DNA of 37,753 nucleotides. It comes from a virus. Taxonomy: Duplodnaviria > Heunggongvirae > Uroviricota > Caudoviricetes. The stretch lies in the IMG/VR virus record IMGVR_UViG_2687453319_000001. One strand, given 5' to 3'. Both the position numbers and the translations under genes were made by a program. Numbering within the stretch: the first letter of the stretch is position 1; every line of letters starts with the position of its first letter. Shown here one piece after another: positions 439 through 3,219 of the stretch. The notes under the pieces were generated by a model. That model made no database searches. It was not told where the DNA came from and worked only from the letters and a program-made list of their open reading frames with translations.

Positions 439-1011
439 TTACATTTCAGGTTGCGTTATGACAGTCCCAACAGGGTGATAGCGGTAGATCGTTGACAGTC
501 CAATATCATAGATAATTGCCAGCCGCTTTCTGTCATACCCTTTCTGGAGCAATCTTGCGATCTGCTCATGCTGCTCCTTCGTCAGTTTCGGGCGACGTCC
601 TCCAACTCTTCCTTGTGCTCGCGCAGCAGCCAGTCCTGCCAGCGTGCGCTCAACTATCAGTTCACGCTCCATTTCTGCCAGTGCACCCATCATATGAAAA
701 AAGAACCTTCCCATCGGAGTGCTGGTATCGATTGAATCCGTCAGACTGCGAAAATTGACACCTTTTGCGCGTAGCTCTTCTGTGAGAGCAATGAGGTGTT
801 TCATTCTTCTACCCAACCGATCCAGCTTCCAGACCACCAATGTATCCCCTCTTTTAAGGCACTTTAAAGCGCGTTTCAGGCCTGGTCGTTCCGACTTGGT
901 TCCGCTCATTTTGTCCTCAAAAATCTGTTCACATCCTGCGCACATTAATGCATTGCGTTGCAAATCTGTGTTTTGGTCATTTGTTGACACACGTATGTAG
1001 CCAATCAGCAT
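439..1011 (-). CDS. Serine recombinase, DNA invertase of the Gin/Pin/Hin/Cin family
   Basis: ORF 439..1140 with likely start at Met44 (1011). Translation [22 protein letters not shown]...[14 protein letters not shown]...[24 protein letters not shown] matches the resolvase/invertase catalytic domain with the active-site Ser in RVST; sits next to the invertible fiber cassettes. Confidence 0.93.
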
Positions 1012-1065
1012 TAAAAATACTCCCTTTTGAGTGGTTAAAGTACTGAGATAATGTGGGGAGGATTT

Positions 1066-1091
1066 GAGAGATAAACGTTGGTTTGGGGGAA
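1066..1091 (+). other. gix/hix-like crossover site 1 (core AAACG-TT-GGTTTGGGGG), at start of a ~210-bp conserved junction repeat
   Basis: Sequence gagagataaacgTTggtttgggggaa; imperfect dyad resembling the Hin/Gin AAACC-AA-GGTTT core; inverted relative to sites 2 and 3. Confidence 0.6.
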
Positions 1092-1556
1092 GGCTCTGCA
1101 TTGCCTGTTGGTGTACCGGTTCCATGGCCCACCGCCACACCGCCAGCAGGCTGGTTACAGTGCAACGGAGCTACGTTCACCAAAGAACAATATCCTGTTC
1201 TGGCCAGAGTCTACCCGACCCTCCGTCTTCCCGATTTACGCGGTGAGTTTATCCGTGGATGGGACGACGGGCGCAAGATTGACGAGGGGCGTAAGTTGCT
1301 TTCATGGCAGAAAGGTACACTGGTCGGCGGTCATGACGATAACGATTCTTCGCTTGATATCTCGTACATGAGTAACGGAAATAATATTGACTATGGCGGC
1401 GATAAGGTGTTTGCGGGGAATTACCGTAGCGATTATTTGTGGTACGTAATTCTGGGAGGAACAAACAGTCGCGCAAAAGCCGAATTAAACGGAGCATTCT
1501 TTAACATAACCCGCCCCCGCAATATCGCGTTTAACTATATCGTGAGGGCGGCGTGA
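1083..1556 (+). CDS. Tail fiber C-terminal variable cassette A (silent in current orientation)
   Basis: Begins inside the crossover repeat (LGEGSALPVGVPVPWPTATPPAGWL..., no ATG; the ORF track start is a TTG). Conserved ~70 aa N-terminal junction shared with cassettes B and C; ends NIAFNYIVRAA, like lambda Stf / P2 H C-termini. Confidence 0.8.
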   Translation: MGEGSALPVGVPVPWPTATPPAGWLQCNGATFTKEQYPVLARVYPTLRLPDLRGEFIRGWDDGRKIDEGRKLLSWQKGTLVGGHDDNDSSLDISYMSNGNNIDYGGDKVFAGNYRSDYLWYVILGGTNSRAKAELNGAFFNITRPRNIAFNYIVRAA

Positions 1557-1562
1557 TACCGT

Positions 1563-2177
1563 TCAACTGGCAAGTGCCAGTGGCGCTTCCGGCCAGCTGA
1601 TTTCAGGTGCCGTGCTGATATCCAGTGCGTTCAGCTCGTCGATATAATCCAGCACGGCGTTCAGTTTTGCCGTTTCTTCTGGTGTCAGACTGCGACCAGC
1701 ACGCAGTTTGAGGTTGATAAGATCGACTGACGCCATCGCCTGTTTCACCCGTTGCTGGCGTTGCTGTCTGGCAACCTCCAGTTCTGCGGCTCGCTGCCGT
1801 TCAGTATCGGTTACCCACGCCTCACCGTTCCAGGTATCCCATGGCGTGGCTGGCTGTTTTGTGGTGGTGTCCGCCGGGTAATCACCCGGTTGGGTAATCA
1901 GAACAGGGTTACCGTTCTCCGTGCTGTATACCGTCTCGCCGCGGTGATCAGGCACATGCTCCCACCCGTTCAGCGTGGCAGTCCGGCAAACCACGTAACC
2001 CGAAATTGCCTCCGGCGGTGCATCGGCGCACGAATGTGCCGGAGTACCCACCCCAAGGGCGAGATACTCCACAGAGGATGAGGTGTATTCCCGGGTTTCC
2101 TCGTCATAGTGATATACAGTGATATCGCCCGCTACAGTGGCGATACCGTTTTCATCCAGAACTGCAGTGTTACTCAT
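1563..2177 (-). CDS. Tail fiber assembly protein (Tfa / Mu U / P2 G-like)
   Basis: 204 aa, directly downstream of cassette B with overlapping stop/start; C-terminal region ...LRAGRSLTPEETAKLNAVLDYIDELNALDIS typical of Tfa chaperones. Confidence 0.85.
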   Translation of the reverse strand: MSNTAVLDENGIATVAGDITVYHYDEETREYTSSSVEYLALGVGTPAHSCADAPPEAISGYVVCRTATLNGWEHVPDHRGETVYSTENGNPVLITQPGDYPADTTTKQPATPWDTWNGEAWVTDTERQRAAELEVARQQRQQRVKQAMASVDLINLKLRAGRSLTPEETAKLNAVLDYIDELNALDISTAPEISWPEAPLALAS

Positions 2178-2689
2178 TAAACTGCCCTCACAATGTAATT
2201 AAGTGCAATGCTACGGGGTCTGACAGTGATACCCTTCGCATACCCGCTTCTGATAGAGGTCAGAATAGTAGCCTGCATACCATTGTCTGACATTGCCACG
2301 ACAGGATCGCTGAATGTTGTCCCGTCCGGCATTTTAAAGCTGCCCTCACGAAGGTCTGTAATGGAATCTTCATTGTTGAATCCCATGCCGACTATCCCCG
2401 AGGTTCCCGTAGTGTCCTGGTTATAATAATCCAGCATTGCTGTTCTTAACAGCGTTGCCCCTTGTGCGGACAGCAACTTACGTCCTGTATCAACTTTGCG
2501 CCCGTCGTCCCATCCACGGATAAACTCACCGCGTAAATCGGGAAGACGGAGGGTCGGGTAGACTCTGGCCAGAACAGGATATTGTTCTTTTGTAAAGGCG
2601 CGCCCGTCGCACTTTAACCAGCCTGCTGGCGGTGTGGCGGTGGGCCATGGAACCGGTACACCAACAGGCAATGCAGAGCCTTCCCCCAA
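2177..2689 (-). CDS. Tail fiber C-terminal variable cassette B
   Basis: Starts in crossover repeat 2 with the same conserved junction (MGEGSALPVGVPVPWPTATPPAGWLKCDGRAFTKEQYPVLARVYPTLRLPDLRGEFIRGWDDGRK), divergent distal part, ends SIALNYIVRAV. Confidence 0.8.
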   Translation of the reverse strand: MGEGSALPVGVPVPWPTATPPAGWLKCDGRAFTKEQYPVLARVYPTLRLPDLRGEFIRGWDDGRKVDTGRKLLSAQGATLLRTAMLDYYNQDTTGTSGIVGMGFNNEDSITDLREGSFKMPDGTTFSDPVVAMSDNGMQATILTSIRSGYAKGITVRPRSIALNYIVRAV

Positions 2690-2707
2690 ACCAACGTTTT
2701 TATGCGG
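2682..2707 (-). other. gix/hix-like crossover site 2
   Basis: Reverse complement reads cataaaaacgTTggtttgggggaagg, identical to site 1 from the core onward. Confidence 0.6.
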
Positions 2708-3173
2708 CCCTTACGATGTAATTAAACGCAACATTGCGGGGGCGCATTGATATCCATGCCCCGGTAAAATTATCCTCCGCTGTCCTTTGAATACCCGTTA
2801 TAGAGTTATCTGCTGATGCAGGAACATAATCGCTATTATTTCCTGCTTTAGGATTAGCTGGGTTTCCAACGGTTATAACAGAATCAGCAGTAGCAAAAGC
2901 GATACCTACTTTGACATTAGTATTCAGATCGTAACCGTAATAATCCTGCAAAGCTGTACGAATAAATGTTGCAGCCTGACCACTTAGCAATGAACGCCCC
3001 GTATCAACTTTGCGCCCGTCGTCCCATCCACGGATAAACTCACCGCGTAAATCGGGAAGACGGAGGGTCGGGTAGACTCTGGCCAGAACAGGATATTGTT
3101 CTTTTGTAAAGGCGCGCCCGTCGCACTTTAACCAGCCTGCTGGCGGTGTGGCGGTGGGCCATGGAACAGGCAC
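2700..3173 (-). CDS. Tail fiber C-terminal variable cassette C (currently adjacent to the constant region)
   Basis: Same conserved junction (VPVPWPTATPPAGWLKCDGRAFTKEQYP...), ends NVAFNYIVRAA; lies between direct-repeat sites 3 and 2. Confidence 0.8.
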   Translation of the reverse strand: MPVPWPTATPPAGWLKCDGRAFTKEQYPVLARVYPTLRLPDLRGEFIRGWDDGRKVDTGRSLLSGQAATFIRTALQDYYGYDLNTNVKVGIAFATADSVITVGNPANPKAGNNSDYVPASADNSITGIQRTAEDNFTGAWISMRPRNVAFNYIVRAA

Positions 3174-3193
3174 ACCAACAGGCAGTGCAGAGC

Positions 3194-3219
3194 CTTCCCC
3201 AAACCAAGGTAATTGAGGA
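3194..3219 (-). other. gix/hix-like crossover site 3 at the constant/variable junction of the tail fiber gene
   Basis: Reverse complement reads caattaccTTggtttggggaagg; G run is 4 here but 5 in sites 1 and 2, which breaks the fusion frame. Confidence 0.6.

Follow-up and report, generated by a model that had tools for sequence, protein, structure and literature searches.

The window, i.e., the whole stretch of 37,753 nucleotides of tailed-phage DNA analysed here (virus record IMGVR_UViG_2687453319_000001), contains a DNA invertase gene, three alternative ends of a tail fibre gene, a single fibre assembly gene, and the constant part of the fibre gene, together with three crossover sites. The features are as follows; crossover sites are written as outer half-site, core, and head half-site, read in coding orientation.

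439..1011, - strand: Din-family serine DNA invertase (Gin/Cin/Pin/Min/Hin type), 190 aa, same protein as WP_000904922.1 (RefSeq)
927..990, - strand: putative sis-like recombinational enhancer; its two G-N13-C blocks are 976-990 and 927-941
1066-1091, + strand: crossover site 1, GAGAGATAAACG TT GGTTTGGGGGAA, core TT at 1078-1079, between the invertase side and cassette A
1080..1556 (ORF 1083-1556), + strand: cassette A, alternative fibre C-terminus, 158 aa, Pfam Collar
1563..2177, - strand: tail fibre assembly protein (Tfa), 204 aa, Pfam Caudo_TAP 3.5e-28, WP_000072166.1
2177..2692 (ORF 2177-2689), - strand: cassette B, alternative fibre C-terminus, 171 aa, Pfam Collar
2681-2706, - strand (reverse complement): crossover site 2, CGCATAAAAACG TT GGTTTGGGGGAA, core AA (+ strand) at 2693-2694
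2700..3205 (ORF 2700-3173), - strand: cassette C, alternative fibre C-terminus, 168 aa, Pfam Collar
3194-3219, - strand (reverse complement): crossover site 3, TCCTCAATTACC TT GGTTTGGGG(G)AA, core AA at 3206-3207
3208..4691, - strand: Sc, the constant part of the fibre gene, coding for the N-terminal attachment region and the shaft

The invertase has the full organisation of a Din-family recombinase, i.e., about 190 aa with an N-terminal resolvase domain (Pfam Resolvase, 8e-51), the catalytic Ser9 in the motif YIRVSTNDQ, and a C-terminal helix-turn-helix (HTH_7, 1e-12). Its residues 1-181 match the structures of Mu Gin (4m6f and 3uj3) with an E-value of 2e-93, and the identity with 4m6f, counted from the alignment, is around 80% over 181 aligned residues. 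A Gin-like invertase is therefore encoded next to the segment. The two G-N13-C blocks correspond to nucleotides 22-36 and 71-85 of the invertase gene, at its 5' end, and occupy the same positions in Mu gin. Both match Mu gin at 14 of 15 positions, a likeness that is inseparable from coding conservation. The surrounding DNA is 76% identical. By analogy with Gin and Hin, the 5' end of the invertase gene would carry a Fis-bound enhancer.

Pfam Collar is found in all three cassette ORFs (E about 1e-15). Cassette A is composed of a head (1080-1300), which holds the Collar domain, and a unique tip (1301-1553). When this tip was compared with 50,697 phage records by tblastn, no fibre of known specificity was found; the only matches were prophage-derived records and weak ones below 42% identity. 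The shaft of the constant part is made of 168-nt (56-aa) Phage_fiber_2 repeats (3369-4508), and in the corresponding Eco889 protein Pfam recognises this domain in 7 stretches (5e-123). Constant part and cassette are read as one protein in other genomes, where Sc-C (664 aa, Eco889) and Sc-B (667 aa, strain C7) are single unflagged CDSs. Cassette B is the sole cassette with a tfa behind it, and the tfa start overlaps its stop codon (TAATG). Hence, the tips do not each own a tfa in the manner of Mu U and U': a single Caudo_TAP gene is present, after cassette B. No relative of Tfa was found in the PDB. An orientation-independent tfa promoter was considered and rejected, a consensus scan giving 1 site in 4.5 kb against a shuffled expectation of 3.1, with none near tfa.

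Crossover sites and nested segments

Three repeats of 218-266 nt, located at 1073-1303, 2424-2699, and 2938-3203, form the 5' parts of the cassettes. Repeat 1 is inverted relative to the two others. It pairs with repeat 2 over 231 nt (1073-1303/2469-2699, 92% identity) and with repeat 3 over 218 nt (1083-1300/2986-3203, 90% identity), and repeats 2 and 3 are direct over 266 nt (2424-2689/2938-3203, 89% identity). Apart from the 168-nt repeats of the shaft, no comparable further repeat is present in positions 1-6500. Each of the three repeats is opened by a 26-bp crossover site of the hix/gix type, with a TT/AA core and the head half-site GGTTTGGGGGAA in all three. This agrees with the sites of the Din family, in which a 2-bp core, common to all partner sites, separates two imperfectly inverted half-sites of 12 bp. 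The outer half-sites (TCCTCAATTACC, CGCATAAAAACG, and GAGAGATAAACG) are degenerate, and those of sites 1 and 2 end in AACG instead of the consensus AACC. Site 2 has the tail of cassette C on one side and the head of cassette B on the other, and site 3 joins the constant part to cassette C, which is thus the cassette fused to it in the window arrangement.

Repeat and site comparisons confirmed that the three junction repeats carry gix/hix-like cores, as first proposed, and the repeat alignment agrees with the predicted inversion of site 1 relative to the direct sites 2 and 3. The three sites delimit two nested invertible segments, an outer one of 2128 nt and an inner one of 1615 nt, so that more than two crossover sites and overlapping segments are found, as in Min-type systems. 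The likeness to Min/Pin multiple inversion drawn in the first-pass annotation was apt.

Frameshifts in the fibre gene

At site 3, the run at 3197-3200 reads CCCC in the window and CCCCC in all related genomes, which puts the constant part out of frame with cassette C. Two further frameshifts in the fibre gene are one-base deletions at about 4472 and 4587. If these deletions are true, no fibre is made by the window copy. The copy could then be a decayed and locked remnant, i.e., a fibre pseudogene that has three frameshifts, including one within site 3, and in which switching would have no phenotypic output; the missing base also lies in the head-side half-site of site 3, beside a constant part that is out of frame at its cassette C junction and at two further points. 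We consider this reading very improbable. Over 37.7 kb, the window differs from Eco889, whose prophage has the same insertion in irp2, by 12 one-base deletions and a single substitution. All 12 deletions fall in G or C runs of 3-6, the three fibre frameshifts are among them, and such a pattern typifies an unpolished long-read consensus rather than decay. Moreover, the matches listed at 100% coverage (H1-H17) all span 2902 nt, against 2901 nt for the query, and thus all have the base that is missing from the window. The fibre frameshifts of the window are probably consensus errors, and the apparent fibre pseudogene would be a sequencing artefact.

Four isomers in complete genomes

The three other isomers were built in silico by swapping the DNA at the core dinucleotides and were then searched in complete E. 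coli genomes. We counted only single-piece, full-coverage matches with at least 97% identity. Junction counting with short queries was dropped because the search joins pieces lying on the same strand. All four isomers exist in complete genomes, and the counts below are those of genome records, which are non-independent samples and each display the majority arrangement of their culture.

State 0 (Sc-C, tfa co-oriented downstream; the window): 18 records
State 1 (Sc-C, tfa reversed): 32 records, 15 near-perfect
State 2 (Sc-A, tfa reversed): 36 records, 14 near-perfect
State 3 (Sc-B directly followed by tfa): about 49 records, 12 perfect

The initial reading had predicted that an inversion between sites 1 and 3, followed by the inner inversion, would yield Sc-A and Sc-B with Tfa, and both products are found in nature, as states 2 and 3. 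It had also correctly stated that cassette A never has a co-oriented tfa. The same holds for cassette C in one of its two states. Cassette B is joined to the constant part also in L002 and L003.

Different states also occur in close relatives. Two blood isolates from the same patient (Houston) are in state 1 (p11A) and state 3 (p11B), as assigned from maximal-score matches to the synthetic states 1 and 3 and from identical annotation tables. The protein accessions of their flanking genes and the locus coordinates are equal, and their genome sizes differ by 5 nt. Strain GN04979 carries three copies in a single genome, in states 0, 2, and 3.

The position of the exchange was also delimited. Between sites 1 and 3, it occurred between -1 and the first head SNP at +22, and a 95-nt identical block lies deeper in the repeat, beyond this interval. 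Bit scores are near-constant across states (4259 in the lineage at 97.0% identity; 4547-4553 in the lineage at 99.1%), so that, within a lineage, heads stay linked to tips. These observations bear on another way of producing the isomers, namely RecA-dependent homologous recombination between the 218-231-nt inverted repeats, in which the hix-like sites and the invertase would be irrelevant or inactive. The repeats are long enough for it, are 90-92% identical, and contain the uninterrupted 95-nt block. Moreover, the first three SNPs of the cassette C head in EC190759 are of the A/B type, which fits an exchange or a conversion inside the head, so that some events of this sort also occur. However, the isomers built by core exchange are matched perfectly or near-perfectly in 12-15 genomes per state, and this, with the near-equal bit scores, places the exchange within the 23 nt beside the core, outside the longer identical blocks. 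No defect is seen in the invertase, and the exact protein is present on at least 1000 contigs. In the related modules of EPEC and EC958, single cultures contain the variants side by side, at levels of tens of percent (PMC4272514, PMC4134206), far above the RecA rates for diverged repeats of 0.2 kb. We thus regard a RecA origin as very improbable, and retain exchange by the invertase at the cores.

The module also exists with other numbers of cassettes. Four crossover sites are present in a relative inserted at the same place, and two-cassette forms are common, with both orientations represented among two-piece matches. That cassette C could be an assembly artefact, i.e., an alternative-orientation contig of a two-cassette switch merged into the chromosome as a false duplication, is scarcely credible: Forde et al. 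caution on this very error in PacBio assemblies (PMC4134206) and two-cassette forms are frequent, but the cassette C tip is unique, being no copy of A or B, and cassette C is present in about 135 complete assemblies across the four predicted arrangements as well as in a P2-like prophage.

The proposed switch and its known relatives

The region is, with high probability, an invertible switch by which a transposable, Mu-like prophage of E. coli changes its host range; the prophage is of the same type as Phi2 of the ST131 strain EC958. The constant 5' part of the fibre gene (attachment region and repeat shaft) terminates at a 26-bp crossover site, and three promoterless 3' cassettes (A, B, and C) each provide the common half-site, a conserved Collar head of about 70 aa, and a distinct tip of about 90 aa. 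In the mechanism that we propose, the Gin-like invertase would carry out the exchange at the 2-bp core, pairing site 1 with one or the other of the two sites that face it. An outer inversion of 2.1 kb and an inner one of 1.6 kb would generate the four isomers, so that each lysogen would release virions bearing one of three tips. Judging from its relatives, the element would also switch in this strain. By analogy with Gin and Hin, inversion would be favoured, and deletion between sites 2 and 3, which are direct repeats, would be the lesser outcome; the three tips would differ in receptor specificity.

As for the backbone, Mu in the strict sense was tried as a model and rejected: the early operon is divergent from the late operon, and the prophage therefore looks BcepMu-like rather than strictly Mu-like, with a gene order that we take to be like that of BcepMu.

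Two to four Collar cassettes share one tfa in every relative examined, among them the modules of EPEC, EC958, MS8345, and P1-like plasmids, and tfa is co-oriented with the fibre operon in half of the states. One might imagine that the module breaks a rule of one chaperone per tip, A- and C-type tips (and D, E, and F) folding without a dedicated Tfa and only B-type tips needing one, a proposal that we find rather doubtful. The number of cassettes (2, 3, 4, or more) and their identity change fast, and cassettes are common to Mu-like, P2-like, and P1-like elements, with the same heads and sometimes an identical invertase. This turnover may come from invertase-mediated cassette deletion or from exchange between co-resident elements.

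The host range of temperate phages, and of the phage-plasmids by which resistance genes are moved among E. coli, depends on such switches. Errors of assembly and annotation also arise from them, for instance alternative contigs or orphan "phage tail protein" fragments. The arrangement recorded here is only one of the four states that interconvert. What is currently understood of DNA invertases is left unchanged by these findings.

Several known systems can be compared with this one. R64-type shufflons (Rci) similarly produce alternative C-termini of one protein by multiple inversions of short cassettes. Rci of R64 is a tyrosine recombinase that acts on sfx sites in the pilV gene, whereas the recombinase of the window is a serine resolvase/invertase; the resemblance is functional only, and the module is not a shufflon in the strict sense.

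The G segment of Mu (Gin), the C segment of P1 (Cin), and the P segment of e14 (Pin) are closer. Their invertases are homologous to that of the window, as in the match to Mu Gin, and their crossover site occupies the corresponding position of the fibre ORF (...LGL...). The spacing between site and invertase is also the same, with 67 nt from the core to the start codon both in the window and in Mu, and the invertase gene is located outside the segment, with its reading direction pointing away from it. They differ in having two sites that bound one segment and give two states, whereas the window has three sites, nested segments, and four states. Each of their variable parts has its own tfa (U and U' in Mu), against a single one in the window; the variable parts are short Collar cassettes here, in contrast to the Sv and Sv' parts of Mu, of about 320-335 aa.

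The Min multiple-inversion system of plasmid p15B, a classical multi-site relative reportedly described by Iida, Sandmeier, and Arber in 1990-1992, shares with the window a Din-family invertase, more than two crossover sites, one constant 5' part of the fibre gene, and several 3' cassettes. It has six sites and far more isomers than the four that are generated from three sites in the window. The identical invertase is found in database entries of P1-like plasmids, together with cassettes A and B and tfa; the cassettes in such plasmids number up to five.

Two relatives have the closest design. In EPEC E2348/69, a double inversion was described in a P2-like prophage (Goldberg et al. 2014, Genome Med, PMC4272514), and the coexistence of all four variants was established there by PCR and sequencing (PMC4272514). 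As in the window, this module has three partly homologous repeats (215 bp, 92%), which start with ACCTTGGTTTGGGGGAAGG, two nested inversions, four variants, three alternative C-termini, and one tfa behind one cassette. It differs by its P2-like backbone, its different invertase (199 aa), its diverged heads, and its other tips.

In EC958, PacBio reads gave direct evidence that prophage Phi2 inverts (Forde et al. 2014, PLoS One, PMC4134206). The invertase (WP_000904922.1) and tail protein I are identical to those of the window, and the remaining baseplate genes are either the same or very similar. Phi2 also has a Phage_fiber_2 shaft fused to Collar cassettes, cassette B with tfa, and three sites, and its outer half-sites TCCTCAATTACC (Phi2_5prime) and GAGAGATAAACG (Phi2_3prime), with the TT core, are the same as in the window. 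It differs by its tips, E and F taking the places of A and C of the window, by a constant fibre part that is annotated as broken, and by its insertion site, which adjoins aroA in EC958 and lies in irp2 for the window. The two outermost sites of Phi2 were published and compared with the Sandmeier consensus (PMC4134206); that paper describes these two outer sites and one inversion of 2067 bp only, and the internal third site is unreported there (PMC4134206). The switch is thus already known, and an ordinary one, since both the element and its three-site design were described earlier. The Phi2-type module was published as a simple two-site switch but in fact possesses a third site, which is internal.

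The prophage and its tail fibre module

A Mu-like, transposable E. coli prophage supplies 37.4 kb of the window (its right-hand part), and about 360 nt more come from the host gene irp2 (yersiniabactin synthetase HMWP2), a virulence gene which the prophage interrupts and of which a fragment forms the left flank (1-~360). The copy in E. coli strain Eco889 aligns with the window end to end, and irp2 is also the insertion site in Eco889 and EC190759. The same prophage adjoins lafU, dgcM, ydiV or aroA in other genomes, and such varied insertion sites are expected of a transposable phage. 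The late genes lie on the minus strand, the tail fibre coming after baseplate J and tail protein I, and the early operon on the plus strand is divergent from them. In Mu, on the contrary, early and late genes are co-directional; the divergent layout presumably resembles that of BcepMu-type phages. No com/mom genes were found 3' of the invertase in the window. The tape measure region (10192-10991) contains internal repeats of ~270 nt (self-matches at 92-97% identity), and the Eco889 annotation gives this gene as two pseudogene pieces.

Features of the window
~27000-37753, plus strand: early operon, with transposase (30965-32734), B-like ATPase, gam and mor (37364-37753)
6368-5265, minus strand: baseplate J, late gene
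5272-4694, minus strand: tail protein I, late gene
~4691-3208, minus strand: constant part of the tail fibre (N-terminal attachment region and shaft)
3205-2700, minus strand: cassette C
2692-2177, minus strand: cassette B
2177-1563, minus strand: tfa, the tail fibre assembly gene
1080-1556, opposite to the fibre direction: cassette A
1011-439, minus strand: invertase

The shaft contains six tandem 168-nt (56-aa) Phage_fiber_2 repeats (3369-4508) of two alternating subtypes, which are 85% and 98% identical to the first copy. Relatives differ in the copy number of these repeats, with fibres of 664 aa (Eco889), 538 aa (EC190759) and 560 aa (MS8345). Read in the fibre direction, the module is ordered site 3, cassette C, site 2, cassette B, tfa, cassette A (on the opposite strand), site 1 and invertase. 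The first-pass annotation had proposed here three junction repeats, the first inverted relative to the other two. This is borne out by two inverted pairs (1073-1303/2469-2699, 231 nt, 92%; 1083-1300/2986-3203, 218 nt, 90%) and one direct pair (2424-2689/2938-3203, 266 nt, 89%), each repeat opening with a 26-bp crossover site whose core is TT rather than the TC of Mu gixL. The remainder of each repeat codes for a conserved Collar domain (PF07484 in Pfam; A, B and C each at E about 1e-15), homologous to the T4 gp37 tip collar (2xgf) and to the collar of a short tail fibre (9cuy). Beyond these heads, the three tips are mutually unrelated.

Crossover sites (outer half-site, core, head half-site)
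Site 1: GAGAGATAAACG-TT-GGTTTGGGGGAA
Site 2: CGCATAAAAACG-TT-GGTTTGGGGGAA
Site 3: TCCTCAATTACC-TT-GGTTTGGGGGAA
Mu gixL, for comparison: TTATCCAAAACC-TC-GGTTTACAGGAA

The invertase (190 aa, Resolvase and HTH_7 domains) is matched over residues 1-181 by the Mu Gin structures 4m6f and 3uj3 (E 2e-93), with about 80% of aligned residues identical, as counted from the printed alignment, and it retains the catalytic serine. The core of site 1 lies 67 nt from its start codon, exactly as gixR does from gin in Mu. The enhancers of the Gin and Hin systems, which Fis binds, lie in the 5' region of the invertase gene. Two 15-nt G-N13-C blocks at this end of the gene, each agreeing with Mu gin in 14 of 15 bases (76% identity in the flanking DNA), constitute a putative Fis enhancer, a lead given by homology.

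Four isomers in E. coli genomes

As site 1 faces both of the other sites, inversion can take place in just two ways, and four states result. Taking Eco889 as template, we assembled the isomers for states 1-3 computationally, with every swap placed precisely on the core dinucleotides. Each isomer was searched against 5,426 complete E. coli genomes, and only single-piece matches at 97% identity or better were counted.

The four states (Sc, constant part of the fibre gene)
State 0 (window): Sc-C, tfa co-oriented downstream; 18 records
State 1: Sc-C, tfa reversed; 32 records (15 near-perfect)
State 2: Sc-A, tfa reversed; 36 records (14 near-perfect)
State 3: Sc-B, tfa directly downstream; about 49 records (12 perfect)

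The arrangements predicted at first pass, i.e., Sc-A and Sc-B followed by Tfa, are thus found as states 2 and 3: the observation is confirmed and its interpretation as an invertible switch supported. Further evidence for active switching comes from comparing genomes. The isolates p11A (state 1) and p11B (state 3), blood isolates from the same place, are one outer inversion apart, with genome lengths differing by 5 nt and flanking genes sharing protein accessions and coordinates. The GN04979 genome carries three prophage copies, in states 0, 2 and 3. Finally, in two lineages bit scores are almost equal across all states (4547-4553, 99.1% identity to the query; 4259, 97.0%), so that heads are not scrambled relative to tips in these lineages.

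Sites 1 and 3 differ in their outer flanks at the core-adjacent base, and their heads first differ at +22. Together with the base-perfect isomers, this places the exchange within a 23-nt interval including the core, which supports site-specific exchange by the invertase. RecA action would be expected in a 95-nt identical block deeper inside the repeat. One exception is the cassette C head of EC190759, whose first three variable positions are of the A/B type, suggesting that some conversion between heads also occurs.

Mu and P1 possess an assembly gene for each variable part, whereas this module and its relatives have one tfa for two to four cassettes, and this tfa reads the same way as the fibre operon in states 0 and 3 alone. 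A consensus scan of 4.5 kb found no promoter-like site able to express tfa in the reversed states, and tblastn of the cassette A tip against 50,697 phage records found no A-like tip in characterised phages. On the simplest interpretation, Tfa would be needed by the B-type tip alone.

Apparent frameshifts of the fibre gene

Site 3 of the window lacks one C (CCCC, against the usual CCCCC), and this missing base puts the constant part out of frame with cassette C; the fibre is shifted at two more points, about 4472 and 4587. Over its full length, the window differs from Eco889 only by one substitution (21114) and 12 one-base deletions (67, 3197, 4472, 4587, 6644, 10991, 11120, 12966, 13582, 18852, 20516 and 22348), all 12 in G or C homopolymer runs, a pattern that looks like an unpolished long-read consensus. 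Because the deletions are restricted to homopolymers and Eco889, with the same irp2 insertion, has an intact fibre (a single 664-aa ORF), the fibre frameshifts are probably artefacts. Such deletions probably cause apparent frameshifts in other late genes too, e.g., around 10991-11120 in the tape measure region.

Relatives and known switches

Two-cassette forms (A and B with tfa) are common in both orientations, e.g., in IAI39 and SCU-101. EC190759 (NZ_CP142953.1, locus positions 1301-3899; same irp2 insertion) has one crossover site more than the window, four in all, and an additional cassette, D (154 aa), joined to a constant part with a shorter shaft, and the P2-like prophage of MS8345 carries C, B with tfa, A and a second C. 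Beside one module copy, in LH10-b-1 (NZ_CP100530.1), an 'XF1762 family protein' is annotated at the usual place of the invertase. P1-like phage-plasmids in databases combine this invertase with tfa and cassettes A and B, and related modules on ~90-100 kb plasmids reach five cassettes. Plasmid p1_000200 of WCHEC96200 (92.5 kb; locus positions 3562-7631), presumed P1-like on account of its size and phage genes, encodes an invertase and a Tfa identical to those of the window, with close variants of cassettes A and B (1-2 aa differences) on a different fibre N-terminus. Such varied sets indicate a shared pool of cassettes moving between unrelated myovirus backbones, which agrees with the long-established view that fibre genes are exchanged horizontally.

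The module is a Din-family multiple-inversion host-range switch, a type of which Min of p15B is the classical multi-site relative. It is already documented, as the same element in prophage Phi2 of EC958 and as the same architecture in EPEC. The invertase, tail protein I and outer half-sites (those of sites 3 and 1) of Phi2 are identical to ours. In PacBio data, Forde et al. 2014 (PMC4134206) saw Phi2 in alternative contigs, described a Phage_fiber_2 shaft fused to Collar-domain 3' ends, and reported only the outer site pair, TCCTCAATTACCTT-GGTTTAGGAGAA and GAGAGATAAACGTT-GGTTTGGGGGAA. In the Phi2 sequence (NZ_HG941718.1), we read a third, internal site, GGCATAGAAACG TT GGTTTGGGGGAA (locus positions 1555, 1994 and 3594), and three cassettes, E, F and B with tfa; the constant part of its fibre is annotated there as a broken pseudogene. 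In the P2-like prophage of EPEC E2348/69, three partly homologous 215-bp repeats, opening with ACCTTGGTTTGGGGGAAGGCTCTGCACTGCC, allow two inversions and four variants with three alternative C-termini, and PCR confirmed all four variants (Goldberg et al. 2014, PMC4272514); the layout is that of the window, with a single tfa. What this analysis adds is small: the four states are counted across public genomes, the exchange is located in the 23 nt next to the core, Phi2-type prophages are found to have a third, previously unreported site, and the window frameshifts are recognised as probable consensus errors.
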